From Minisyncoccota bacterium (GTDB lineage Bacteria; Patescibacteriota; Minisyncoccia; Phycocordibacterales; UBA2100), in contig JALHPE010000004.1 in the NCBI GenBank assembly GCA_022842645.1, positions 8,557 to 72,556 of the forward strand: a stretch of DNA of 64,000 nucleotides, given 5' to 3'. A program made the position numbers and the translations under genes. This document shows positions 13,154 through 56,085 of the stretch, piece by piece. The first letter of the stretch is position 1, and the number at the start of each line of letters is the position of its first letter. The notes beneath the pieces were generated by a model. That model was not told the origin of the DNA and made no database searches. It saw only the letters and a list, made by a program, of their open reading frames with translations.

Positions 13154-14474
13154 GATCGTACCACCATATTGCGGCCATTACCGCAACAAACAACAAAAAT
13201 CCCTCTATTGGTACCCGGTACCGAGCGTTCGAGACAGGTCCCGTGAGAAGTGCAAAATATACGACGAGCGCTGAGAGAAAGAGTAGTGACGACCATTCCC
13301 GCCGCATGATTGACCGCATTGTCTCGAAACCAAAAAGAAGCGTTACCACCCCCCAAAACCCGGTACCTACCAAAAACAAAGTGACCGCCAATCCCCCACC
13401 CATCACATACGTGACCAAAAGTGGAAAATCAAGGCGCATGAGTGCTGTTGATATGTTAGGGATTGCACCAACATCGACGCCAAACAGGCGAATAGTGTCG
13501 CGTAGTCCATCGGTTACAAAAAAAGGAATTGTTTTCACGAGGTGAAAGAACGTATAGGACAGCTCCTTCCCACGGATGATTTCGCGAAATGTCTCGGTAA
13601 ATACGCTGTTTCTCGTGAGCGAAAGTGCCTCTTCTCGCGGCAATGCCGCTTGTTCGTTTCGAAATGAATCGAGGAGAGCTTCTGATTTTTCATCACTATG
13701 CCATTTTAAGAATTCCGGAGCATTGTACAGCATAAGATTCGCCGCGCCGACAGAGGAGATACTCCATGAGTCGAATGTAATATGGTTGCGGTACATCCAT
13801 GGACCTATAACTAGGAGTGAGGACGTGCACAAGAGGCTTGCGGCAATAATGCTTGTTCTCGAAAATGTTCCCATCGCAAGAAGATAGGCGCTGTATACCA
13901 ATGGCAAGAATATGGCGATGGGACGCACGAGTATAGCGATTCCGAGAAGGATCCCACTCGCAAGTACCGCACGATACGAGTGTGACGTGTGCATCAGGCA
14001 GAGCAATGACGCTAAGAACACTACCGTAAAAAACGCATCCGACAGAAAAGATGCCGAAAGATATAAGCGCACCGGCTCACAAGCAAACAGGATCGAAGCC
14101 CAAAATGCGGCTCGTTCATGAAAGGGGCGCACGAGTAGATAGAGCAACATAGGAGCACTACTTACGATTAGCGCGTGTACAAAAAGCGCAGCATACGAAA
14201 CACCGACGATACTGAATATAAGCGCGAGAAACGCTGGATAGCCGGGGGCGCGGAAGCTTTCTGGATAAAATGGCGCGCTCGTTGCTACGGAAAATACCCC
14301 GTGAGCTCGCATATTTTCGGCAAGAAGCACGTATCCCTTACTATCTCCCGTGAGGTGAAGCGGATTGAGTCCCTGCTTTTCTGCAAAAATAATAAGTGCC
14401 GCACATGCCGCAAGCGTCACAGCAACCGAAACGAGAGCGACAATGCGAAATCGTTTTTCGTGTATGATATTCAT
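13131..14474 (-). CDS. GT-C glycosyltransferase, ArnT/PMT (GT39/GT83)-like
   Basis: 447 aa and multi-TM, with N-terminal motifs (LTGDSKGY, RAPGYPAFL) typical of dolichyl/undecaprenyl-phosphate-sugar-dependent transferases. Confidence 0.62.
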   Translation of the reverse strand: MNIIHEKRFRIVALVSVAVTLAACAALIIFAEKQGLNPLHLTGDSKGYVLLAENMRAHGVFSVATSAPFYPESFRAPGYPAFLALIFSIVGVSYAALFVHALIVSSAPMLLYLLVRPFHERAAFWASILFACEPVRLYLSASFLSDAFFTVVFLASLLCLMHTSHSYRAVLASGILLGIAILVRPIAIFLPLVYSAYLLAMGTFSRTSIIAASLLCTSSLLVIGPWMYRNHITFDSWSISSVGAANLMLYNAPEFLKWHSDEKSEALLDSFRNEQAALPREEALSLTRNSVFTETFREIIRGKELSYTFFHLVKTIPFFVTDGLRDTIRLFGVDVGAIPNISTALMRLDFPLLVTYVMGGGLAVTLFLVGTGFWGVVTLLFGFETMRSIMRREWSSLLFLSALVVYFALLTGPVSNARYRVPIEGFLLFVAVMAAIWWYDRVHATLE

Positions 14475-15196
14475 GACTTTTGCACAACCGCAACAAGCGA
14501 GACCCCATATGGAAGCGGTGTGAATCGTAGGAGAAATCGTTCGCTACCAAAGAGTGACGCAAGGATGGGATTCAAAAAGCCGGGTGATTTGTTGAAATCG
14601 TTTCCCGCTTCTTTCCAACGCAGCTTCCCGAAAAGTCGCACCAGTGCGATAAGCGGAAATAAGAAAAAGTTGTAATAACTTAGCACACGCACTGTGAGTC
14701 CCGCCTCCTGAAAAAGCTTTTGCAGCTCGCGCTTGCGATAACGCCTGAAATGGTGTGCACGCTCATCGTGAGAGGTCCATAAAAACTGAAACGCGGGCAC
14801 CGTAATAACGGCTACGCCGCCCTTGTTAAGGATACGGTGCACATCCCTAAGTGCTGCACTATCGTCTTCTAAGTGTTCTACTACGTCGAGAAGCGTTACC
14901 ACATCGTAAGTACCGGAAGGAATTTCTGATGAGGGAAATACTGACTGCACAATAGCGACCTGAGGAACTGCTTCTTTCGCAAAGAGAATGGCGTCCGGCG
15001 ATGGTTCGAGGCCATGCACATCATAACCCTGATCACAAAAAGCCTTTGCATTGAACCCTGTGCCGAGCCCAATATCCAGCAACTTCCCCTTTGGCGCGTA
15101 GTGACGCATGAGATCAAAAACGACGGCACGGCGCCCCTGAAACCACCAATGGTTCTTTTCAAGCTCGGCCATCTCCGCATACATGCTTTTCTCCAT
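14471..15196 (-). CDS. class I SAM-dependent methyltransferase (type 11/12)
   Basis: 241 aa with motif LLDIGLGTG. Confidence 0.75.
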   Translation of the reverse strand: MEKSMYAEMAELEKNHWWFQGRRAVVFDLMRHYAPKGKLLDIGLGTGFNAKAFCDQGYDVHGLEPSPDAILFAKEAVPQVAIVQSVFPSSEIPSGTYDVVTLLDVVEHLEDDSAALRDVHRILNKGGVAVITVPAFQFLWTSHDERAHHFRRYRKRELQKLFQEAGLTVRVLSYYNFFLFPLIALVRLFGKLRWKEAGNDFNKSPGFLNPILASLFGSERFLLRFTPLPYGVSLVAVVQKS

Positions 15197-25136: not shown

Positions 25137-26221
25137 AGAGCCTCCACCACGCGAATATATTCTCGTGCGGCTTTGGGCCAGGAAAAGATTGTCGCGCGGT
25201 CTTTTCCTTTAGTGATGAGTTCTGTGCGGAGAGCTTCGCCATTGTAGATGCGCTCCATTGCTTCGGATATCGCATCAACATTATGTGGATCAACGAGGAG
25301 AGCTGCATCGTCCGCAACTTCTGCCATCGAGGAAATATTCGAAGTAATAACTGGCGTACCAAGGCTCATGGCTTCCACGATTGGCATGCCGAATCCTTCA
25401 TTAATTGATGGAAAGACACATGCGAGTGCGTTTTTATAGTAGGCATAGAGCGCCCCCTTCACCGTATACCCCACAAAATGAACGTTCTGTTCTAGTCCAG
25501 CCTCCTTAATGTCCTCCTGGATTTTTTCGTAATAGGATCCGCCATAGTCGCCTGCAATAACGAGCTGACAATTGGAAGACATCCGTTTTTTAAAGCGAAT
25601 AAATGCGGAGACAATGCCGTGCACATTTTTGCGGTATTTCACTTTTCCTATAAAGAAAAAATAGGGTTTCAAATTCTCGTTCACGGGAACTGCCTCGTCT
25701 TTATATACTTCAAGACTCTGAAATCCGTCATAACTCACCGCAATACGATCCTCTCCTATACCATAAAAATGCATGAGGTCTTTTTTTGTAGCCTCAGAAG
25801 CGGCGATGATATGACTCGCACGCGCAAACGAAAGACGCATGAGTATCTGATCGCGTAAGAACGCAAACGCTTTTGCACTCAATCCTTGTGGTGGGATCTT
25901 CTGGCTCGCGAGCTCTTGGCACATGGGGATCGCATGTACACCGCGCACAATCAAAGGCACCATCGGCACCATGAAAATAAGTGCATCGGGACAGTTTTTG
26001 AGCGTAAAAAAGAACCAGAGTTTCTTTAGAAAGTTATGGGGGACGATTATGTTCTCATAGGCACCGGGAACGAGTGCCCGATCAATTGGTTTTGATGAGT
26101 AGAAAAGAAATTCGTGCGCAGGCCCTTCTTTCGGAAGGTTACGCATAAGTTCGAGAATCACATACCCCATCCCCGAGGCATTACGCTCCTCGTATGGCTC
26201 TGCGACAAACCCAATTCTCAT
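25133..26221 (-). CDS. GT4 glycosyltransferase
   Basis: 362 aa with INEGFGMPIVEAMSLGTPVITSN. Confidence 0.8.
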   Translation of the reverse strand: MRIGFVAEPYEERNASGMGYVILELMRNLPKEGPAHEFLFYSSKPIDRALVPGAYENIIVPHNFLKKLWFFFTLKNCPDALIFMVPMVPLIVRGVHAIPMCQELASQKIPPQGLSAKAFAFLRDQILMRLSFARASHIIAASEATKKDLMHFYGIGEDRIAVSYDGFQSLEVYKDEAVPVNENLKPYFFFIGKVKYRKNVHGIVSAFIRFKKRMSSNCQLVIAGDYGGSYYEKIQEDIKEAGLEQNVHFVGYTVKGALYAYYKNALACVFPSINEGFGMPIVEAMSLGTPVITSNISSMAEVADDAALLVDPHNVDAISEAMERIYNGEALRTELITKGKDRATIFSWPKAAREYIRVVEAL

Positions 26222-27249
26222 ACCACCAAGGGCTCAAGCACAGCGCGATTCTCTTTGATCCACGCAAACATGTCGTCAAAACCCTCTTCAAGAGCAATTG
26301 CCGGTTTCCAGCCAAAATCATGCTCGGCTTTGCGTACGTCAGAGATATAGAGCTTTTGGTCACCGGGGCGCCAATCACTATGAGACACTGCGACCGTACC
26401 AATTTTTTTCTCAAGAAACGAGACAAATTCAAGAATGGACGATGTGTAGCCGGCGCCGCCACCAATGTTGTAGATCTGACCCCGTGTCGCATCAATGCGT
26501 GCGATTGCGGCGTCAAAAGCTCGCACCAGATCGTTCACGTGCAGAATGTCGCGCACTTGTTTGCCGTCGCCATAGATCGTGATCGGTTTTCCAAAAAGCG
26601 CACGCATCGTGAGAAACGCCACCCATCCTTGATCCACAATGCCAAATTGGTGTCCGCCATAAATACACGATTGGCGGAATACGACAGTCGGCACATCATA
26701 GATACGACTCCAATCGCGCACATATTGATCTGCCGTGCCCTTAGAACAACCGTAGGGTGAGTGGAAGTCGAGAAGCATCTCTTCGGGAACACCGTGGGGC
26801 ATATCGGGAAATACATAGCGTGTTCCCTCTTCTTTCACGACAACATGCTCCAACCCTCCGTACACTTTATTAGTTGAAGTGTAGAGAACGATCGGCTTCT
26901 TCGTTGCGCGACGCGCGCCATCCAGTACTGCCAGCGTGCCCAGCGCGTTAGTATTGAAGTCAAGAAGAGGGTCGGTCACCGATGTCGTCACGGCAACCTG
27001 CGCTGCGGCATGGAGAATGACATCGTAGTCACCTTGTGCAATGTGCTCGGAAACTGCGGGAACATCTTTAGCTACATCCATCTCAAGAACGATGATGTTC
27101 GGTACGGCTTGTTTTAGAAACGCTTCGTTAACCCGAGAACCTGGGCGAGAGAAATTATCAAGACACGTAATATCCCATCCCTTTGCTGCAAAATACACTG
27201 CAGCGTTTGTACCGATAAAGCCGCTTCCCCCTGTGATGAGCATCTTCAT
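26218..27249 (-). CDS. NAD-dependent epimerase/dehydratase (CDP-paratose-2-epimerase/dTDP-glucose-dehydratase-like SDR)
   Basis: 343 aa with ITGGSGFIG. Confidence 0.78.
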   Translation of the reverse strand: MKMLITGGSGFIGTNAAVYFAAKGWDITCLDNFSRPGSRVNEAFLKQAVPNIIVLEMDVAKDVPAVSEHIAQGDYDVILHAAAQVAVTTSVTDPLLDFNTNALGTLAVLDGARRATKKPIVLYTSTNKVYGGLEHVVVKEEGTRYVFPDMPHGVPEEMLLDFHSPYGCSKGTADQYVRDWSRIYDVPTVVFRQSCIYGGHQFGIVDQGWVAFLTMRALFGKPITIYGDGKQVRDILHVNDLVRAFDAAIARIDATRGQIYNIGGGAGYTSSILEFVSFLEKKIGTVAVSHSDWRPGDQKLYISDVRKAEHDFGWKPAIALEEGFDDMFAWIKENRAVLEPLVV

Positions 27250-37889: not shown

Positions 37890-38630
37890 TCACGTTTCCT
37901 CAATGATGGTCCATTCCTCTCTTTCAGCGCGGCGCGCGAGCACGGCGCCCGCGATGCCGACAAACGAAATGCAGCCGACACCGAGAAGCCAAAGTGTCAT
38001 ACTTGGGTTTTCTTGGGGGAGCTCGAAGGATCCGAGCGATTCTCTCTCAGTTTGAGTTCCAAGAACCTGAGGAGAGGAAGCTGGTGTGGCCACGGCTTTC
38101 TTTGCACTCGCTTTTTCTTGTATCGCCGCACGCACTAGGCCTCCTACAGGAATTCCTGCGCCGGGGGTTGGGAGGCCGGGAGCCAGCGCCCCGCCTGTCG
38201 GTGTTGTTCTTTGGAGCGATTCCCCTGAACCGTTACCACCGAGAGATTTTGTGTACACAGCACTATCGATAGTCGTATCTCCTTTGCGTAGTTCAATCGT
38301 CTCGCCATCGTTATTCAAACTGAACGCACTATCGAAAAGAAGTCCTGTGTAGTTCGGATAATCGGCACGAAATTTTTCTGGCTTGTCGGCAATGACAGCA
38401 TGTGCCCCGGGCGCAATGAGTGATTCGCCCTTGATTACGTGTTTGCGATTACTTTCGAAAAGAATAAGTTCTGCGAGCGATAGGGGTACTGCGCCTATGT
38501 TGTATACCTCAATCCATTCGCGACCACTGTCTGACCCTTCGGCAAGGTCGTACATGATTTCAGAAATTATCACCTGCGCCGAGGTGAGTGCGGGAAGTAG
38601 TAAGGCAACAATGAACGCATTACGAACCAT
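37890..38630 (-). CDS. lamin-tail-domain (LTD) secreted protein with C-terminal TM anchor
   Basis: Signal peptide MVRNAFIVALLLPALTSA. LTD signature SEIMYDLAEGSDSGREWIEVYNIG...LNNDGETIELRKGDTTIDSAVY. A Gly/Pro-rich linker is followed by a C-terminal hydrophobic helix. Confidence 0.62.
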   Translation of the reverse strand: MVRNAFIVALLLPALTSAQVIISEIMYDLAEGSDSGREWIEVYNIGAVPLSLAELILFESNRKHVIKGESLIAPGAHAVIADKPEKFRADYPNYTGLLFDSAFSLNNDGETIELRKGDTTIDSAVYTKSLGGNGSGESLQRTTPTGGALAPGLPTPGAGIPVGGLVRAAIQEKASAKKAVATPASSPQVLGTQTERESLGSFELPQENPSMTLWLLGVGCISFVGIAGAVLARRAEREEWTIIEET

Positions 38631-40413
38631 GGAGGACTTTGCGAAGGTCTTCGGGCGATATGCCATCGGTGTTTTTTTCTGATACTGATTCTCGTGGCGG
38701 GGCCACATGCACCGTGTTTGGATCGCGGCGCGCTTCGCGCGCCGCTTTTCGCGAACGAATAATATCCGCAGGGGAACGCATATCAATGGTTGCCCCGCGC
38801 GCCGAAGCAATAGCACTTTTTAGCGCATCGCGTGTATGAGTCTCAGGTTGTGGGGTCTGGGGGCGGGGCGCAGGAGGCGTTTCTCGCATTGGTTCTGGGG
38901 CGCGCGGACGAGGAGCCTCTTCTCGACGCTCTTGTACCGGCTCTTCCCTCCGAGGTTCTCGAGGAGCGGGAGGCCGCGCCTCGCGCGGACGATCATCGCG
39001 ACGCGGCTCTCTCGGGGCACTCCCAAAATCCCGCCGCTCTCCGCCAAAACGAGTCGCACCGCCCGGCCGATCCGTCTTTGGCTTCGGCGGAGGTGCTGCA
39101 AAGGCTGTTTGCCATTCGCCAATCTGCTTCTCCACCTCGGCGCGAGAGAGCGCGAACTCTGCGCGCGTATGATGAATCACATCTTCGCGGTATGAAATAG
39201 CGGGCGCATCAATTGGTGGAATGGTCTCCGCAGAAAAAGGCTGACTCCCCACGCCGTCGATCATGAGCGTGAGATAGATTTGCCCCAGCCCCAGGTTCGT
39301 TAAATCCTCTGGAAGGAAGATTGGTTTGTAAACGGTCTCCAACACCTCAGCATCAAACGGCCCCACACGAAACGTGATCAGCGTCCCCACGTTACCAAAC
39401 ACGGCATTGCGCACATTCTCTTCCATCTGCTCGATGTACTGGTTTGCAAGCGTGAGTGCGAGCTTATATTTGCGTGATTCGGAGAGAATGTCGGCGAATG
39501 CCTCGTTCATCATCGACTGGAACTCATCGACGTAGAAGTAACAGCGCGGAAGCGCCGCCATGCGTGCGGGAGGCTCGTCGGCGCGCGACATCGCCGCGAG
39601 ATAGATTTTCACGGTGAGCATTGAGCCCAAAAGCGCAGCGTTTGATTCTCCCATTCTTCCCTTCGAGAGATTCACGATAAAAATCTTTTTCTCATCCATC
39701 ATCTTTCGAAGATCAAAGGTGGATTTTGACTGTCCAACGATATTACGGATCAGTGGGTTCGAAACAAACTGACCAACTTTGTTTTGAATCGCGGGCGTGG
39801 CTTCCTGTGTGTAGCGGTCGGTGTACGTCGCAAATTCGACTGTCCAGAAATCGCGCACGATGGGGTCGGTGATTTTCTCAATCACCGCCGCACGAAATGA
39901 TTTGTTGGTGAGCATGCGGTTCACGTCGATCAAGGTCGCTCCGGGGTATTCCAGAAGTGCTAAGAGCACGTTCTGAAGGATGTATTCCATACGCGCACTC
40001 CACGCGTCCACCCAAATACGCTTGAAGGCGCCCATGAGGCCGGAGACCACCAAATGGCGCTTGTCGTAACCCACATCTTCCATCACATTAAAGCCGACAG
40101 GATAATCCACATCAAACGGCGCAAAGTAGAGCACGTCTTTAATGCGCTCGTGTGGGATGAAATCCAAGAGCTTCTCGGCAGTTGAACCGTGGGGGTCGAT
40201 ATAGGCAATACCTTCTCCATTTTGAATATCCTGAATCGCCATATTCTCGAGCATGGTCGATTTCCCCATACCCGTCTTTCCAATCACATACATATGCTTC
40301 CCACGATCAATCGCGCGAATGCCAAACATCTCGCGCTTTCCGCGCGTATGCGTTGTCGCAAAATACGTTATGCGCCGTTCGTCGTTATGGCTCCCGCTTC
40401 CCTTGGGGGTCAT
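38620..40413 (-). CDS. HerA/DUF87-type (VirB4/TraG-superfamily) P-loop ATPase with ~150 aa Pro/Arg/Glu-rich C-terminal tail
   Basis: 597 aa. Walker A is VIGKTGMGKST. YIDPHG, a Walker B CYFYVDEFQ and SESRKYKLALTLANQ (an EGRKyG-like motif) are present. The tail is PREPRRDDRPREARPPAPREPRREEP... Confidence 0.6.
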   Translation of the reverse strand: MTPKGSGSHNDERRITYFATTHTRGKREMFGIRAIDRGKHMYVIGKTGMGKSTMLENMAIQDIQNGEGIAYIDPHGSTAEKLLDFIPHERIKDVLYFAPFDVDYPVGFNVMEDVGYDKRHLVVSGLMGAFKRIWVDAWSARMEYILQNVLLALLEYPGATLIDVNRMLTNKSFRAAVIEKITDPIVRDFWTVEFATYTDRYTQEATPAIQNKVGQFVSNPLIRNIVGQSKSTFDLRKMMDEKKIFIVNLSKGRMGESNAALLGSMLTVKIYLAAMSRADEPPARMAALPRCYFYVDEFQSMMNEAFADILSESRKYKLALTLANQYIEQMEENVRNAVFGNVGTLITFRVGPFDAEVLETVYKPIFLPEDLTNLGLGQIYLTLMIDGVGSQPFSAETIPPIDAPAISYREDVIHHTRAEFALSRAEVEKQIGEWQTAFAAPPPKPKTDRPGGATRFGGERRDFGSAPREPRRDDRPREARPPAPREPRREEPVQERREEAPRPRAPEPMRETPPAPRPQTPQPETHTRDALKSAIASARGATIDMRSPADIIRSRKAAREARRDPNTVHVAPPRESVSEKNTDGISPEDLRKVLHGS

Positions 40414-45607: not shown

Positions 45608-46990
45608 CTATACAATATTTTTAATTATTTGCAAAAACTGATCATTCCTCTCATACTCATTCTTAAACATACCAAACGAGGCGAAGGCGGGACTGAAGAG
45701 GATGGTGTCGCCTTCCTCGGCAAGTTCGAGAGCTTTAGAGACGGCCTGGTTGAGAGAGTTGAAGGGACCGTGGTGTGCAGGTTTTAGGTTATAGGTTTTA
45801 GGTTCTAGGGAATTCCCTAACACCTTATCCCTAGCACCTAGCACCTTTTCGGTGCCGGAGCCCGCGAGAAAGACTACAGCCTTACATGAGCGATTCACTT
45901 CCTCCACGAGTGCACTCATGTCCAACCCTTTATCTGCCCCACCCATAATAAGTAGTATGTGGGACTTCGTAAGTCCCACATTGAGTGCTTGCAAGGCAGC
46001 GATCGCTGCCTCCGGCGTCGTTGCGTTGTTGTCGTTATAGATTTTGACGCCATTAATTTCACGTACGAATTGTAAACGCCCCTCCACACCACCGAATGAA
46101 GCGAGTCCTTCGCGAATTTCTTTTTCCGACAATCCATAGGCCTCTAGCGCGGCGGCGGCAAGTGCAGCGTTCAGGCGATTGTGCTCGCCCGGCATTTGAA
46201 TCCCCCACCCTTGAGGAAGTGGCGTTTCAATATGCTTTGCGTACACATCCGGGACAGCAATCCCGGCAATGCGCTCAGCGAGCTCAGGTGTTGCAATAAG
46301 CGTATCTCCTTTCTTTTGGAAGCGGAAAATATTCGCCTTATCAGCAAAATAGGTATCCATGTCAGGATAATAATTTTGGTGATCCGGCATGAGATTGGTA
46401 AAAACGGCAATATGCGGACTCAGCTTCAAATCGCCAAACCCCTGCAACTGCCACGAATCAAGTTCCAAGACGAGCACATCGCCTTCTCGAAAATCCGGAA
46501 GCATGGCGAGTGTAGAGACACCGCGAATGTTCCCGCCAAGATGTGCTCTCCGCCGGCTGGCGGACCCCGAAGCGACAAGCGCATGGTGGATCATGTGCGC
46601 GACGGTGGATTTGCCGCGCGTGCCGGTGACACCAATAATCTTGACTCCCATTTCATATGCAAACTTCGCCGCCAGAGCGGTCGACATGTAGACAGGCACC
46701 CCCGCAGCTTTTGCTGCAGCGACTTCTTTTGAATCGAGCCGCACGCCCGCGCTTTTTATGACCATGTCGGTGTCGGTGAAATCTACGCTATCATGCCCCC
46801 CGAGATGGAATGTGACGCCGAGCCCCTCGAGCCGCGCTACTGATTCAACAAGTTCCTCATGCGTCTTCAAATCCGTCACCGTCACACGCCCGCCGCACTT
46901 GGCGATACATTCAGCGTCGCCTACTGAGCGCCCCAAAAGTCCGAGCCCGAGTATGGTGACACGCTTCCCCTTAAAAAAATCGCCGTACAT
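45608..46990 (-). CDS. murD: UDP-N-acetylmuramoylalanine--D-glutamate ligase MurD
   Basis: 460 aa with N-terminal GKRVTILGLGLLGRS and a Mur ligase central domain. Confidence 0.9.
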   Translation of the reverse strand: MYGDFFKGKRVTILGLGLLGRSVGDAECIAKCGGRVTVTDLKTHEELVESVARLEGLGVTFHLGGHDSVDFTDTDMVIKSAGVRLDSKEVAAAKAAGVPVYMSTALAAKFAYEMGVKIIGVTGTRGKSTVAHMIHHALVASGSASRRRAHLGGNIRGVSTLAMLPDFREGDVLVLELDSWQLQGFGDLKLSPHIAVFTNLMPDHQNYYPDMDTYFADKANIFRFQKKGDTLIATPELAERIAGIAVPDVYAKHIETPLPQGWGIQMPGEHNRLNAALAAAALEAYGLSEKEIREGLASFGGVEGRLQFVREINGVKIYNDNNATTPEAAIAALQALNVGLTKSHILLIMGGADKGLDMSALVEEVNRSCKAVVFLAGSGTEKVLGARDKVLGNSLEPKTYNLKPAHHGPFNSLNQAVSKALELAEEGDTILFSPAFASFGMFKNEYERNDQFLQIIKNIV

Positions 46991-48437: not shown

Positions 48438-49517
48438 TCAGTAGTTTTTGTATTCGTTTTCGAGAAAATCTTTGAGTCGCCGTAAACCCTCATCAATTTT
48501 TGTTACATCAAGAGCGTAACTAAACCGCACACGATCCGGCGCGCCAAACCACGCGCCGTCGTAGGTAATCATGCGGTAGGTATAGTATAAATCACTCACG
48601 ACGCGTCCTGAATGCTTAAACGTGGGAAGCACATAAAAGGCGCCCTCAGGTTCCCAGAGCTCAAGCCCGAGTGCGCGCATGCCCGTGTACATTCTATCGC
48701 GCCGCTCTTTCCACACATCAACATAGGATGTCACATACGAGCGCGGGGAAAGAAGCGCCGCAAGTGCCATGTCCTGCGCCAAAATACTTGTGTTCATCGC
48801 TGTATGCGTTTTCATCTCTACCACCGCTTTCACAAGTTCTGCGTCTTTAGAAAACAGATAGCCGACGCGAAGCCCGCACATCGCATACGTCTTCGAGAAC
48901 GAATTGATGGTAACCACATGCGGTCCGTGGAGGAGATAATTTTCGCGGACATAGATTAAATCTTTGTACACTTCGTCAGAGAGTATGTAGATTCCTTCCC
49001 GCGCACAGAACTGCTCAACTGCCTTTAGTGTTTCTACGTCTTGCACTGTACCCGTTGGGTTTGAGGGTGAGTTAATAAAGACCGCAATAGAACCTGTCGC
49101 TGCTTTTTTAAATGTCTCGAGATTAATTTTTCCTTCCTCAAGGTCGTAGTACACAGGTTCCATACCCGCGAGCCGCACGTTGTGTGGGTAGGAATAGTAG
49201 TAGGGGCGCGGAAGTGCGACCTTTCCACCTGGTCCGCCAACTGGCGGAGCAATTGCACGAAGCGCGAGATCGATCGCCTCTGAAGCGCCATTGGTTATGA
49301 CGAAATCATCGGGCCCTGCGTCTGCGTACTGTTTTGCAAGCTCGCTTCGCAGCGCGACGGAACCAGCCACTGGTCCATATTTAAATCCACGGTGACTTGC
49401 AAGTATCGCAAAAGCCTCCTCCGGCGGCGGCAAGTCCGGTTGCCCCGAGCCGAAGGAAATTAAAGAATCATCGCCTTTCCCAATGAAAAAAGATGGGCCG
49501 GGAATTGGAGGATTCAT
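48438..49517 (-). CDS. class I/II pyridoxal-phosphate-dependent aminotransferase
   Basis: 359 aa with SFSKTYAMCGLRVGY, the Lys-bearing PLP motif. Confidence 0.8.
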   Translation of the reverse strand: MNPPIPGPSFFIGKGDDSLISFGSGQPDLPPPEEAFAILASHRGFKYGPVAGSVALRSELAKQYADAGPDDFVITNGASEAIDLALRAIAPPVGGPGGKVALPRPYYYSYPHNVRLAGMEPVYYDLEEGKINLETFKKAATGSIAVFINSPSNPTGTVQDVETLKAVEQFCAREGIYILSDEVYKDLIYVRENYLLHGPHVVTINSFSKTYAMCGLRVGYLFSKDAELVKAVVEMKTHTAMNTSILAQDMALAALLSPRSYVTSYVDVWKERRDRMYTGMRALGLELWEPEGAFYVLPTFKHSGRVVSDLYYTYRMITYDGAWFGAPDRVRFSYALDVTKIDEGLRRLKDFLENEYKNY

Positions 49518-52020: not shown

Positions 52021-52096
52021 TGGTGCGCGCACTAGGGGTCGAACCTAGGACCTCCCGAGTATCAGTCGGACGCTCTACCAGCTGAGCTATGCGCGC
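52021..52096 (-). tRNA. tRNA-Ile (anticodon GAU), CCA encoded
   Basis: GCGCGCATAGCTCAGCTGGTAGAGCGTCCGACTGATACTCGGGAGGTCCTAGGTTCGACCCCTAGTGCGCGCACCA. Confidence 0.85.
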
Positions 52097-52440: not shown

Positions 52441-52764
52441 ATGAAAACACTTCTCATTGGCGTCCTCTTAATTATCCTTAGCGCAGTGGGCTATTACTTT
52501 TTCTTCATGATGCCCGCAACAACGCTCAATTCGAATCCGACACCCTCTATCGGAACTCCTGCTCCCGGGAACGAAGGCAACTACCCCGAGCCGCAAAGCA
52601 AACTCAATATCGATGTGATTTGCACCGAATCTCTTGCCTACATGTCATTCCAGAGCGGTGCGGAAGCAGAAGCCTGGGTCGCCGCTTGTAAGCGCGGCGA
52701 GCATCCTGAGGCAATTGATCAGTGGAAACAAATGAACGGCATTACTGACGATCGCGCGATCTAA
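52441..52764 (+). CDS. small N-terminally anchored/secreted protein (107 aa), hypothetical
   Basis: The start is at MKTLLIGVLLIILSAVGYYFFFMMPA (a TM/signal segment) inside ORF 52363-52764. Confidence 0.4.
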   Translation: MKTLLIGVLLIILSAVGYYFFFMMPATTLNSNPTPSIGTPAPGNEGNYPEPQSKLNIDVICTESLAYMSFQSGAEAEAWVAACKRGEHPEAIDQWKQMNGITDDRAI

Positions 52765-53237
52765 CGCTCAATCTTAGACGCCGCTTTCTCTTCAAGCCGT
52801 GCCGATACGCCGGCAATCACGAACGCAGTGACGGTAAGAAAGAGACCGACGGCGACGCCGCCCGCGATGTCGTCCTGGCCTTGATTCGTGAGCGCGAGAA
52901 AAGCCATCGCCGCGAACATAAGTCCGGCAAACGACAGCGCGCAGTATCTGATAGTGCGCAAGGCGCGCACTGATTGCGGCGAGCATGCGTTGCCCTGCCC
53001 GACATAGCCCGCAAGTCTGAATGCCGTGTAGAGCCCCACGAACACGGCAACAAACGAGATGTAGATGTACGCTAGAAACGGGTCGTCGAAATAGATGTCG
53101 TAAAGCGAAGTAGCGTTTGCATTCACACCCTCGACTGTAGGTTCATAGAGCAGTGCGGCCAGAATGCCAGTCCCGAGGAAAACGATTGCTGCCTGCAGAA
53201 ATATCGCTAGAACGCGCTTAGTGCTTCGAACTTCCAT
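52761..53237 (-). CDS. 4-TM membrane protein (DUF2975-like)
   Basis: 158 aa with four hydrophobic helices. Confidence 0.4.
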   Translation of the reverse strand: MEVRSTKRVLAIFLQAAIVFLGTGILAALLYEPTVEGVNANATSLYDIYFDDPFLAYIYISFVAVFVGLYTAFRLAGYVGQGNACSPQSVRALRTIRYCALSFAGLMFAAMAFLALTNQGQDDIAGGVAVGLFLTVTAFVIAGVSARLEEKAASKIER

Positions 53238-53601: not shown

Positions 53602-53809
53602 TAAAAAAACTACCCATTCGGGCGTTTTGTGTTTGCATTTTGACTACAAACTGCTTTCTACAAACTACACACTGTTCACAAAACACTCTTTTGTTCCGTC
53701 CAATACCCCGGTCTTTCCCGGCGTCCGACATATTTGAGGGGTCTAATGTCATGACCCTTGGATACTCGTACGAGATATCCAAATCGACTAACAGCAGATA
53801 CCGAAGTAT

Positions 53810-55670
53810 CTGGTTGTATAGAATGAATCCACGAGCAGCTTCCGCTACCCGTGCCTTGTTACGACTTACTCTTTGTCATTGAGTTTGCCTTGATGCATCG
53901 CAAGGATGCGCTTCGGGCACTCCCAACTTCCCTGAGTTGACGGGCGGATTGCTACCACTGAAGGCTCAGTGTGCGTCCCCACGTAGCGTACGGATTTCCC
54001 GTACTACGCGAGTTCGATATGTTCTATCGATTTTGTCCTTCATTACTCTTTCGAATAACTACTACGACTCTGCTGACTTCTCATGACTGATTTGGTGCCT
54101 TAAATCATGAGATCTCCTTCGGTCATTTTGATTTCTGTTCCATGCATCCATCCGAGCTTTTTTGCATACTTCCCCATTACTCACCGACTGGGTCGTATGC
54201 ACTCTTTCTGTATTGCTACAGGGAGGCTGCGTTTTGCTACTAGGACTCTCGGCACAAAACCTCGCGATTTTATGCTGTCCGTTCACTACATCTTTCGATG
54301 ATCCGATTTTAACGGATTAGAAAACAAAACTACGAAGCACTTTTCTATGTTGAGTACAAGGCTTGAGAACGTATTCACCGCGGTGTGGCTGACCCGCGAT
54401 TACTAGTGATTCCAGCTTCATGAGGTCGGGTTGCAGACCTCAATCCGAACTGACGCCGCTTTTATAGATTTGCTCCGGGTTACCCCATTGCGCCTTGTTG
54501 TAACGGCGATTGTAGCGCGTGTGCAGCCCAAGATATCAGAGGGACATGCTGACTTGGCGTCATCTCCACCTTCCTCCCCCGTGAGGGGGCAGTCTCGCCT
54601 GACAAATATAACAGGCAACGAAGGTTGCGTTCGTTACCCCACTGAAGGGAACGATTCAAACCACGAACTGACGACAGCCATGCATCACCTGTCCTACACC
54701 CTCGAAGGCTTCCTAGCTTTCGCTAGGCGTGCAGTAGGATTTCTAACCTTGGTAAGGTTCTTCGCTTAGCGACGAATTAAGCCACACGCTCCACCACTTG
54801 TGCAAGCCCCCGTCTATTCCTTTGAGTTTTAGTCTTGCGACCGTACTACCCAGGCGGATAACTTAACGCGTTAGCTTCGACTCAGAGAGGGTCGATACTC
54901 CCTAAATCCAGTTATCATCGTTTAGGGCGTGGACTACCGGGGTATCTAATCCCGTTCGCTACCCACGCTTTCGTGCTTGAGTGTCAGAAATGTGCCAGTG
55001 AATTGCTTTCGCTTTCGGTGTTCCCCATGATATCAACGGATTTCACCCCTACACCATGAGTTCCATTCACCTCTCACATCCTCGAGTCATGCCGTTTCGA
55101 GTGCGATTCCAGAGTTGAGCCCTGGGATTTAACACTCGACTAACATGACCACCTACGCACCCTTTACGCCCAATGATTCCGGGTAATGCTCGGGGCCTCT
55201 GTATTACCGCTCCTGCTGGCACAGAGTTAGGAGCCCCTTATTCATGAGGTAACGTCAATTACTTCCTCCCTCATAAAAGGTGTTTACGTCCCGAAGGACT
55301 TCATCCACCACGCGGCGTCGCTCGATCAGGCTTTCGCCCATTGTCGAATATTCTCGACTGCAGCCTCCCGTAGGAGTATGGACCGTATCTCAATTCCATC
55401 GATGGGGGTCAGCCTCTCAGCTCCCCTAAACGTCATAGCCTTGGTGAGCCATTACCTCACCAACTAGCTGATATTACGCAGGCCGCTCCAGAAGCGATAA
55501 ATCTTTAGTCTTTCGACACCATCGGGAATTACCCCGCCTTTCGGCGAGCTGTGCCCGACTTCTGGGTACGTTCCTACGCGTTACTATCTCGTCTGCCGGT
55601 TACCTTGCGGTCCCCTTGACTTGCATGCCCTATCCACGCCGCCAGCATTCACCCTGAGCTAGGATCAAAC
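53810..55670 (-). rRNA. rrs: 16S rRNA gene (~1.86 kb) containing a ~0.4 kb insertion near E. coli position ~1395; 3' end atypical
   Basis: Conserved blocks are found on the minus strand. The 5' end is AGAGTTTGATCCTAGCTCAG (~55663). The 515 region is GTGCCAGCAGGAGCGGTAATAC, the 785 region GGATTAGATACCCCGGTAGTCC, and the 907 and 1050 regions are present. ...GTACAAGGC (54347) and CCGCCCGTCA (53940) are separated by ~395 nt. Helix 45 with a GGAA loop is present, but the tail reads GGATTCATTCTATAC instead of GGATCACCTCCTT. Confidence 0.85.
53949..54345 (-). other. intervening sequence/putative intron inside the 16S gene (between the GTAC and ACACCGCCCGT halves of the 1390-1405 region)
   Basis: The flanks abut universally conserved 16S sequence. 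The insert is ~395 nt, too short for a homing-endonuclease ORF. Confidence 0.6.
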
Positions 55671-56085
55671 TCTCAGTTAAAGACGGAGAAATTAATCTCC
55701 GAACTTTTTTGGTTGGACGGAACAAAAGAGTGTACCTTCATGCACTGCAATGGGAGGAAGAGACGAACCTATGCTCGTAGAGCTAGTCTCGGCTCAGACG
55801 CTCAGCGCATCCATAACCTATCTCGCCCCTTCCATTGCAGCGCACAAAGATTTTCCGCCCGAATGAAATTCGTTCGGATAAACTTTTGTTCCTACTTACT
55901 TTACTTTCTTGTGTTCTTGCTTTTTGTGTGTGTTCCGAACGCGCAATTAAAAATTGTGCGCTCGAATAGTTTCTTACTCTCTTCAATTTTCAAAGGTCAC
56001 ACCACATAACGAAAAAAGCCACGTGGGATCCGTAATCTCACGAGGCTCTAGATCAGTAGAGTGAGATGGATAGGCATAGTATAGC

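Follow-up and report, generated by a model that had tools for sequence, protein, structure and literature searches.

The 16S rRNA gene of an uncultured Kaiserbacteria-like Parcubacteria (CPR/Patescibacteria) bacterium is interrupted by a 403-nt group II intron and ends in a tail that has genuinely lost the anti-Shine-Dalgarno (anti-SD) sequence, in a host whose mRNAs are probably leaderless; we put the probability of this explanation as a whole at about 0.82. Both the intron and the tail without an anti-SD are traits already documented for CPR bacteria. Here, we present the comparative evidence for each of them, together with the alternative explanations that have to be weighed against this reading.

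The 16S rRNA gene and its insert

A search with the Rfam model RF00177 locates a bacterial SSU rRNA gene between positions 55680 and 53817 of the window, the 64,000-nt stretch of DNA that was analysed. The gene lies on the minus strand, as do all its parts described below. The search scored 1264 bits for the 5′ part of the gene, and the 3′ exon by itself scored 74.9 bits (model positions 1387-1533). With the insert left out, the mature 16S rRNA is 1461 nt long, in good agreement with the ~1465 nt estimated in the initial annotation of this DNA. The 5′ exon (54351-55680; E. coli positions ~1-1398) ends in ...GCCUUGUACUCA, a boundary taken from intron-less relatives, and the 3′ exon (53817-53947) begins with CCGCCCGUCA and continues through helix 44, helix 45 and the tail. 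The closest 16S relative (95.4%) is without the intron.

The insert is exactly 403 nt long (54350-53948, minus strand) and lies between A1398 and C1399 in the numbering of E. coli 16S rRNA. Its boundaries are unambiguous, as intron-less relatives read GUACUCA|CCGCCCGUCA (in DNA, GTACTCA|CCGCCCGTCA), so that in the window GCCTTGTAC(TCA) is parted from CCGCCCGTCA. The initial annotation had placed an insertion of ~395 nt near position 1395; the insertion itself is real, whereas its coordinates were off by 2-7 nt and its length by 8 nt. The same annotation had allowed that alignment to an SSU covariance model might reduce the anomaly to an ordinary variable-region expansion and an intact canonical tail, and the alignment found neither.

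On the insert, the Rfam model RF01998 (group-II-D1D4-1) exceeds its gathering score (35) with 41.7 bits, and RF00029 (Intron_gpII, domain V/VI) gives no match even at E<=10. Of the two intron classes originally suggested for comparison, group II is the one that fits; a group I intron was rejected, the insert being without an Rfam group I match at E<=10 and having the structure of a group II intron. Judged from the Rfam match, the intron-less relatives, the alignment of homologues and their covariation, the insert (53948-54350) is very probably an ORF-less group II (IIC-type) intron, boundaries included, of the IIC-derived 16S family known as rns-1396 or CPR 16IS9.

Architecture of the intron and predicted recognition of its 5′ exon

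An alignment of ten homologous introns over 459 columns yielded an RNAalifold consensus of 13 helices and 88 pairs, in which 94.5% of cells are paired; in a control with the pairing partners slid, paired cells fall to 33-44%. Compensatory changes are present at 51 of the 88 consensus pairs, as opposed to 11-22 with the partners slid, and none of 500 shuffles reached 51. The multi-domain layout of group II introns is present, with a domain I that comprises sub-helices and a long-range closing helix, followed by domains II to VI. Domains II-III and J2/3 (GGAGAUCU...AGAAGUCAGCAGAGUCGUAGUA...GAAGGAC) occupy 54035-54114 and are the segment matched by RF01998; the DII/J2-3 motif also marks terminator-adjacent IIC introns that encode RVT_1+GIIM proteins (RT/maturase) and carry a CGC-triad domain V. 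Domain IV (54013-54034) is a 22-nt hairpin with no ORF. Domain V (CUCGCGUAGUACGGGAAAUCCGUACGCUACGUGGGG; 53977-54012), as read from the alignment and from pair counts, bears the CGC triad with its central G in a G.U pair (C-G, G.U and C-G at alignment columns 397-399/425-427) and a 2-nt bulge (columns 418-419). Its sequence, CUCGCGUAGUACGG-GAAAU-CCGU-AC-GCUACGUGGG, is nearly invariant in the family. Domain VI and the 3′-terminal AAU (53948-53976) consist of a basal GC/GC helix, which co-varies (helix 13 of the consensus), an inner CACUGA/UCAGUG helix and an unpaired GUA located 6-8 nt from the intron end. Relatives differ from one another in the middle of domain VI, and no canonical bulged branch-point A is clear in this domain. 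The 3′-terminal AY is present, with the intron ending in ...GCAAU and an AU end found in 17/17 related introns compared.

The 5′ end departs from the group II consensus, GUGYG being absent as the first five intron nucleotides. The intron starts with ACAUAGAAAA, a 10-nt linker (54341-54350) that was compared with those of relatives and that runs from the exon to GUGCU (54336-54340), a degenerate form of the consensus found only at nucleotides 11-15 and aligned with AUGCG/AAGCG of relatives. In 30 of the 31 related introns, L128 being the one left unscored, the linker measures 5-10 nt, and this departure from a GUGYG start corresponds to a recognised trait of the subfamily, the '5′ terminal linker'.

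Homologues of the window intron can be traced by sequence. A BLAST comparison with the intron of one relative (L023) gave E=4e-46, and an independent metagenome contig (L129) holds a 436-nt homologue with ~80% identical aligned positions, as read off the MAFFT alignment, which has the same linker and compensatory changes in its helices. Longer relatives have a domain IV of 315-510 nt, with ORFs that match Pfam LAGLIDADG_1 (E=2e-15 to 3e-23). Such an ORF is absent from the window intron with its short domain IV. Its only ORF, of 74 aa (54062-54286), lies within the helices of domain I and is without a Pfam match, and was rejected as a coding sequence.

The 5′ exon ends in UACUCA (54351-54356), the predicted IBS1, and these 6 nt are perfectly complementary to intron nucleotides 168-173, UGAGUA (54178-54183), a candidate EBS1 in a terminal loop of domain I. 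In related introns, EBS1 is found at nucleotides 165-200 and complements the last 5-7 exon nucleotides, and across 31 of these introns its register shifts with the insertion site. Introns located after C1397 have GAGUACA (6/6), those after A1398 have UGAGU(A) (5/6) and those after C1399 have GUGAG (17/18), so that each of the three adjacent insertion points has its own matching EBS1. These matches are good comparative evidence that the exon boundary is recognised and probably spliced despite the 5′ linker, and the window copy adds a clean ORF-less case whose exon-binding register is evident from the sequence. Cleavage at GUGCU would leave 10 extra nucleotides in the 16S rRNA, and this placement of the 5′ splice site was rejected on two grounds: in each of the three site classes, EBS1 is complementary to the true end of the exon, and the junction itself is fixed by the relatives without an intron. 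For EBS2, no domain I element consistently complementary to exon nucleotides -7 to -20 was found in the subfamily of the window intron, the sole recurrent match being the structural DII/J2-3 strand.

The best-surviving alternative, although an unlikely one, is that the insert is an intervening sequence (IVS) or expansion segment which does not self-splice, and which is either kept or cut by RNase III or other host nucleases to give an enlarged or fragmented 16S rRNA. Many rRNA insertions in CPR bacteria have not been assigned to a class, and some of them look like IVSs processed by RNase III (PMC11270868); the missing RF00029 match and the position of the 5′ consensus away from the exon junction would also fit such an origin. 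However, an IVS does not account for the full six-domain group II architecture with its strong covariation, nor for the conservation of a CGC-triad domain V, and an EBS1 register that follows the exact insertion site would make no sense unless the RNA recognised its own 5′ exon. Furthermore, the insert is located in the decoding centre, a region unlikely to tolerate additional RNA or a strand break.

As a group II intron, the insert would be transcribed within the pre-16S RNA, and EBS1 in the domain I loop would pair with the exon end. The ribozyme core, formed by J2/3 and the CGC-triad domain V, would then cleave the RNA where the exon ends, 10 nt ahead of GUGCU. Judging from other group II introns with such linkers, 5′ cleavage probably proceeds by hydrolysis, with branching as the alternative. 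Ligation of the exons would restore GUACUCA-CCGCCCGUCA, the precisely ligated product being GUACUCACCGCCCGUCA. Splicing and its chemistry are thus inferred from comparison; a working ribosome would require the intron to splice. Domain IV may once have held a gene for a single-motif LAGLIDADG homing endonuclease, as it does in relatives, which would since have been lost from this lineage; with this gene gone, the intron would now be a passenger that is immobile or is mobilised in trans.

The 3′ end of the 16S rRNA and translation initiation

The tail GGAUUCAUUCUAUA (53817-53830), which replaces GGAUCACCUCCUUA and contains no CCUCC, comes after helix 45, which bears the GGAA loop. The covariance model sets this tail straight onto the anti-SD positions, with mismatches. 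CCUCC is absent from 42 of 43 related 16S genes, in which the non-SD tail GGAUUCAUUC... is conserved, and an independent assembly (L001) matches the tail at 100% identity, thus reproducing the sequence from which the initial annotation had noted the lack of CCUCC. Downstream lies a 3′ trailer (53760-53812) with a UUCG hairpin (53795-53812), the conserved string GUCGAUUU (53781-53788) and a second hairpin (53760-53780), in line with the strong stems and UUCG tetraloop reported earlier beyond the apparent 3′ end. The pre-16S RNA is closed by a perfect 21-bp processing stem, whose 21-nt 3′ arm (53683-53703) is 100% complementary to the 5′ arm (55713-55733). From helix 45 to this stem, no CACCUCCUU-like string is present. 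A hidden downstream CCUCC was rejected after a search by eye as far as the processing stem and a comparison of the 43 relatives, in which CCUCC-like strings are not conserved. On these comparisons, we are highly confident that GGAUUCAUUCUAUA represents the genuine 16S end, and that the anti-SD CCUCC has been lost throughout the clade.

The initial annotation had nevertheless argued that a CCUCC tail must exist, since many genes in the window seemed to have GGAGG-type ribosome-binding sites. Counting does not bear out this premise, and the argument therefore has no basis: with start codons set by the longest ORF, SD-like GGAG/GAGG/AGGA motifs are found at -16 to -4 in only 7 of 55 long ORFs, compared to a window background of 7.9% (p=0.14), whereas the same script applied to 50 kb of E. 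coli as a control recovered 24/55 (p=2e-16). AGGAG is slightly over-represented upstream (6 versus 2 expected). The most enriched upstream 5-mers are ATAAT, TATAA and TATAG. With no hidden anti-SD, the apparent paradox of SD sites without an anti-SD is removed.

A different signal is present upstream of the genes. TANNNT boxes are found at -13 to -11, mostly at exactly -12, ahead of 13 of the 55 start codons (p=3.5e-9), and a peak at -12 is also present in 174 genes of relatives, in which the SD profile is flat. The box is found in only 24% of the genes of the window because their start codons were set by the longest ORF. The position of these boxes suggests leaderless mRNAs. Many genes would start 6 nt downstream of a -10 box and without SD motifs, and individual -10 promoters, some of which may lie within the 3′-terminal part of the gene upstream, would drive such transcripts. 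Genes inside tight operons need a mode of initiation other than the leaderless one. If the mRNAs lack SD motifs and are probably leaderless, the anti-SD would be dispensable, and we consider leaderless initiation to be the somewhat favoured reason why it could be lost. The wider proposal, to which we give even odds, is that Kaiserbacteria-like Parcubacteria have abandoned SD/anti-SD initiation clade-wide for an essentially leaderless (70S-type) regime with a remodelled 16S 3′ end, in which leaderless mRNAs may serve most genes that come first in their transcription unit. We found no account of such a regime for CPR bacteria in the papers searched.

It is very unlikely that the altered tail is instead a new anti-SD that pairs with a new SD motif, such as GAAUGA or GGAAU, upstream of genes. 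In favour of it are the conservation of the tail throughout the clade and the description of organisms which bind without a conserved CCUCC core (PMC10783764). However, the -22 to -1 regions of 127 ATG-start genes show no enrichment of 5-mers that could pair with the tail, and tail-complementary k-mers form no positional peak in the 174 genes of relatives.

It is as improbable as a new anti-SD that this 16S gene represents a pseudogene in decay or a chimera of the assembly, with a normal copy elsewhere. With 64 kb of the genome in view, a second rRNA copy could lie outside it, and rRNA regions are hard to assemble, as indicated by Logan contigs that break inside the 16S gene. Against this stand the scores of 1264 and 75 bits with all helices intact, the perfect processing stem that flanks the gene, and the recurrence of intron type, insertion site and tail in dozens of independent genomes and metagenomes. 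Moreover, ribosomal RNA genes are usually present as a single copy in CPR genomes.

Least probable of all is the second insertion or intron near positions 1506-1512, or an unusual 3′ processing downstream of helix 45, which the initial annotation had invoked to supply a CCUCC tail: the trailer between tail and processing stem is structured (z=-3.2) and one CCCCUC is present in a hairpin arm ~85 nt downstream, but CACCUCCUU is absent from the whole region enclosed by the processing stem, the tail is the element conserved in the relatives and downstream CCUCC-like strings are not, and the genes are without an upstream SD signal that would require such a tail, so that a second intron is not needed.

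Related systems and wider implications

Insertions in CPR 16S rRNA genes were reportedly first noted by Brown et al. in 2015. A later survey, based on Rfam classification only, counted 53 insertions of group-II-like type near position 1400 in the 16S rRNA of CPR bacteria, termed site 16IS9, most of which carry a LAGLIDADG ORF and none a reverse transcriptase; 14 of the 53 are ORF-less, and ORF-less and ORF-bearing forms are scattered over the host phylogeny (Tsurumaki et al., 2024; PMC11270868). The window intron agrees with these insertions in host group, gene, site and the lack of a reverse transcriptase. Within 16IS9, it is a specific 403-nt ORF-less variant with the GUGCU motif and a 10-nt linker.

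The rns-1396 intron family of Thiotrichaceae is said to have been treated by Salman et al. in 2012. Its group IIC-LHE introns, reported only in Gammaproteobacteria, have a IIC backbone and in all cases a 5′ terminal linker, recognise their exons by IBS1/IBS3 only with no EBS2, encode a single-motif LAGLIDADG protein (LHE) in domain IV and are inserted around 16S positions 1396-1400 (Liu et al., 2026; PMC13190283). The window intron differs from them in its CPR host and in the loss of the ORF, and is likened to them by described traits. Assignment to rns-1396/16IS9 is thus one of matching traits, with sequence homology shown to CPR genome and metagenome copies only.

Mitochondrial IIB1 rRNA introns with 5′-terminal insertions provide a parallel. 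According to what Li, Costa, Michel et al. reportedly found in 2011, they have lost EBS2, are associated with LAGLIDADG rather than RT proteins, and start splicing by hydrolysis to yield linear introns. They belong to another subclass (IIB1 as opposed to IIC) and another host compartment, and the loss of the branch-point A is clear in them but ambiguous in the window intron. Classic RT-encoding IIC introns, of the Oceanobacillus iheyensis type, share with the window intron a ribozyme of ~400 nt, the CGC triad in domain V and the GGAGAUCU...AGAAGUCAGC DII/J2-3 motif. Unlike it, they are located after terminator hairpins, have GUGUG directly at the junction and encode an RT/maturase.

With respect to the tail, Ca. 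Wolfebacteria, Ca. Campbellbacteria and Kaiserbacteria are usually placed in Parcubacteria. The first two are named (PMC10783764) among the SD-scarce prokaryotes without a CCUCC core, which have been described as a class (PMC10783764, class iv; PMC6107228, Amin et al., 2018). The window host belongs with this class in having no CCUCC after helix 45, in the conservation of this state within its lineage and in showing no SD enrichment; these papers do not name Kaiserbacteria-like genomes and propose no mechanism, such as leaderless mRNAs, for the CPR cases. Leaderless-dominated genomes, including Actinobacteria and Deinococcus, are known as 'group C' of GeneMarkS-2 (PMC6028130, PMC3160421). They resemble the window in having a -10-like box that precedes start codons by a short, constant distance and a weak or absent -35 element, but keep a canonical anti-SD and SD motifs for many genes, whereas in the window host the anti-SD is gone. 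Leaderless initiation, if true, would have consequences for how genes are called in thousands of CPR genomes.

Introns in the 16S genes of CPR bacteria, along with 530-loop and 1396 variants, make their hosts invisible or mis-sized in amplicon surveys, and also break assemblies at the rRNA locus. A scan of viral contigs gave no match to the 530-loop variant. Both 530-loop and 1396 variants are also present in the 16S rRNA described here, and short Logan contigs of the same organism break inside the gene.

Boundaries of the insertion and its host

The 403-nt insertion in the 16S rRNA gene is, with a probability of roughly 90% for both identity and boundaries, an ORF-less group II intron derived from the IIC class. 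On the minus strand from 55680 downwards, the gene matches the Rfam bacterial SSU model with 1264 bits, in an alignment that stops at the insert; positions 53950-53817, searched alone, give 74.9 bits to model positions 1387-1533, with helices 44 and 45 intact. Related loci were gathered in one scan of genome contigs with the 22-mer directly upstream of the insert (AATACGTTCTCAAGCCTTGTAC), yielding 57 loci; nearly all belong to MAGs that bear the label Candidatus Kaiserbacteria, Paceibacterota or Parcubacteria. Based on these labels and on the nearest 16S genes (relatives L006 at 95.4% identity and L016, partial, at 96.3%), the host is a Kaiserbacteria-like bacterium within the Candidate Phyla Radiation (CPR).

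The insert is absent from 38 of the 57 loci, 37 of which read GTAC-TCA-CCGCCCGTCA, with ACA for TCA in the outlier locus L045. Measured against these, it comprises exactly 403 nt (54350-53948), other placements being excluded. In E. coli numbering, for which we take the reference to read G1392-UACACACC-G1401, the insertion point is flanked by A1398 and C1399, within the decoding centre, and the predicted mature 16S rRNA is 1461 nt long (1330 + 131). The initial annotation, with about 395 nt near position 1395 and a mature length of about 1465 nt, was essentially right. Inserts are found at the same place in 17 related loci.

Neither 23S nor 5S rRNA was found within the 64-kb window, and the 16S gene is therefore unlinked. 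The usual site of tRNA-Ile(GAU) is the 16S-23S spacer; here it lies 1.7 kb downstream of the 16S gene (52021-52096, minus strand), with a gene for a DUF2975 protein between them (52761-53237, minus strand). In the 530-loop (about 55199-55220, minus strand), GTGCCAGCAG-GAG-CGGTAATAC replaces the CCG version, with a compensating change upstream; among 22 relatives and the window, GAG occurs in 19, CAG in four and CCG in none, and the variant is mismatched to the common 515F primer.

A group IIC-derived intron and its predicted exon recognition

Several lines of evidence identify the insert as a group II intron. Positions 54114-54035 match the Rfam model group-II-D1D4-1 (41.7 bits; gathering score 35), while the curated domain V/VI model RF00029 gave no match on the insert. 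Its last 65 nt form a domain V hairpin, CUCGCGUAGUACGG-GAAAU-CCGU-AC-GCUACGUGGG, in which the triad is C-G / G.U / C-G and 2 nt are bulged, followed by a short domain VI and a terminal AAU. Scanning metagenomes for the DII/J2-3 motif yielded further related introns. For ten introns, aligned with domain IV trimmed, RNAalifold gave a consensus of 13 helices and 88 pairs. Its cells are 94.5% paired, and compensatory changes occur at 51 of the pairs; when partners were slid by 1-3 columns, these values fell to 33-44% and 11-22 pairs, and none of 500 shuffles reached the observed values. The DII/J2-3 motif is shared with metagenomic introns encoding RVT_1 and GIIM proteins, which start with GUGUG directly after a terminator hairpin, carry a CGC-triad domain V and are classic group IIC introns. 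The initial suggestion that the insert might be an intron is borne out. Two metagenome contigs, L091 and L109, each hold two copies of the motif about 1.85 kb apart, pointing to group IIC introns in tandem or in multiple copies.

The window intron starts with ACAUAGAAAA and lacks an initial GUGYG, GUGCU following at nucleotide 11; in 30 of 31 introns (L128 was unscored), 5-10 mostly A-rich nucleotides precede AUGCG, AAGCG or GUGCU. Despite this linker, the 5′ splice site is predicted to be the exon boundary, as the loop UGAGUA at intron nucleotides 168-173 is a perfect complement of the final six exon nucleotides, UACUCA. The insertion point differs among the 31 distinct introns, and the register of the EBS1 loop moves with it: the loop reads GAGUACA in 6/6 introns after C1397, UGAGU(A) in 5/6 after A1398 and GUGAG in 17/18 after C1399, one intron with an ambiguous junction falling outside these classes. 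This shift is the strongest comparative evidence that the intron RNAs would recognise their own 5′ exon. Five introns after C1397 (L008, L029, L048, L058, L061) also have a conserved GCUUGA at about nucleotides 125-152, complementary to exon UCAAGC, which abuts IBS1 upstream; unlike the window's subfamily, they may retain an EBS2-IBS2 pair. Hydrolytic splicing was reportedly described by Li et al. in 2011 for mitochondrial rRNA group II introns bearing 5′ insertions, and by this analogy hydrolysis is the favoured chemistry here, domain VI being too ambiguous to decide.

Published hallmarks of the bacterial rns-1396 family are a 5′ terminal linker, absence of EBS2, a IIC backbone and, within domain IV, a LAGLIDADG gene of the single-motif type (PMC13190283). 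The window intron and its relatives match the first three traits exactly, whereas the LAGLIDADG gene is present in longer relatives and missing from the window copy, whose domain IV is a 22-nt hairpin. In relatives of 793-989 nt, domain IV encodes ORFs of 150-230 aa (Pfam LAGLIDADG_1, E=2e-15 to 3e-23); in several others the ORF is degenerate. The nearest homologues are the introns of the related locus L023 (77% over 281 nt) and of metagenome contig L129 (436 nt; about 80% identical aligned positions, as read off a MAFFT alignment), the latter being identical to the window copy in linker and domain VI and having one domain I helix replaced compensatorily. Since the nearest 16S relative is intron-less and another close relative has a different intron subfamily at C1399, this patchy distribution would fit homing-endonuclease-driven spread followed by ORF loss. 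Of 53 group-II-like insertions reported at about position 1400 of CPR 16S genes, 39 have LAGLIDADG ORFs, 14 are ORF-less and none has a reverse transcriptase (Tsurumaki et al., PMC11270868); the window intron is a new instance of this trait.

Loss of the anti-Shine-Dalgarno tail

In the covariance-model alignment, GAUcACCUCCUUu of the window stands opposite GAUUCAUUCUAUA downstream of helix 45, and the independent Logan assembly L001 is 100% identical through helix 45, tail and trailer. CCUCC is absent from 42 of 43 related 16S genes with recovered 3′ ends, most of which read GGAUUCAUUC(C/A)AAA; the sole exception is L045 (GGAUCACCUCCUU). The locus is enclosed by two arms, 55713-55733 and 53683-53703, that are perfectly complementary over 21 bp and form a typical pre-16S processing stem, which limits all sequence possible in the rRNA precursor, and no conserved CCUCC was found in the trailers. 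The reported absence of an anti-SD tail is accordingly true, and there is little doubt that the loss is genuine and clade-wide. The second intron or special 3′ processing once proposed to account for it is unnecessary and unsupported, given the 42 relatives and the trailers, and the second-intron reading is judged wrong. Published examples of a lost CCUCC core alongside sparse SD use come from further CPR lineages, among them Ca. Wolfebacteria and Ca. Campbellbacteria (PMC10783764), and from other bacteria (PMC6107228); the tail is a new instance of a documented CPR trait. With both intron and tail so documented, their overall interest is modest.

Other features flank the gene. GUCGAUU (window 53781-53788, minus strand) lies 55-70 nt past helix 45 in 37 of 43 tails (42 relatives and the window), followed by a palindromic hairpin (window 53760-53780, minus strand; e.g. 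CUCGAUCGAG), and may be a processing signal. Within the first 30 nt past helix 45 of relatives L009-L060, a mini-hairpin is possible in 29 of 37 distinct tails (shuffled, 17.7 ± 3.0), in which UUCC, UUCA or UCAA of the tail pairs with GGAA, UGAA or UUGA in the next nucleotides (4-6 bp, mostly 4), with an A-rich loop and apparent covariation; the window tail reaches 3 bp only. Just outside the processing stem, a 22-nt inverted repeat in the 5′ leader (55736-55757 / 55828-55849, 82% complementary) may form a leader hairpin or regulatory structure.

Upstream signals and possible leaderless initiation

The initial observations are real apart from the claimed abundance of GGAGG-type ribosome-binding sites. 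Among 55 window genes (taken as the longest ORFs with 100 aa or more), seven have an SD-like 4-mer at -16 to -4, where the window background is 7.9% (p=0.14), compared with 24/55 in 50 kb of E. coli under the same script (p=2e-16); on inspection, GGAGG was seen in only two upstream sequences. K-mers complementary to the 16S tail showed no enrichment upstream of genes, where ATAAT, TATAA and TATAG are the most enriched 5-mers. TANNNT occurs at -13 to -11, mostly exactly at -12 to -7, in 13/55 window genes (p=3.5e-9) and in 1/55 of the E. coli control. Across 174 genes of relatives, the per-position profile of TANNNT peaks at -12 (14, against roughly 3-4 per other position) and that of SD motifs is flat.

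Leaderless mRNAs are characteristically marked by a -10 box 6 nt ahead of the start codon (GeneMarkS-2 group C, PMC6028130). Judging from this position, leaderless initiation is somewhat favoured as a coherent explanation of how the anti-SD was able to decay, and it leaves initiation at genes inside tight operons unexplained. Our literature search found no paper tying leaderless initiation to CPR, Patescibacteria or Kaiserbacteria. Across the clade, the pairing of anti-SD loss with a leaderless promoter architecture is the one thread here that may be under-described. The boxes exactly 6 nt ahead of ATG include TATAGT, TATACT, TATCAT, TATAAT and TAGAAT (examples are the minus-strand genes 45608-46990, 38620-40413, 26218-27249, 14471-15196 and 48438-49517); GCGG or GCGC often precedes them and a clear -35 was not seen. 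For several of them the intergenic gap measures just 3-18 nt, and the promoter therefore overlaps the end of the upstream gene.
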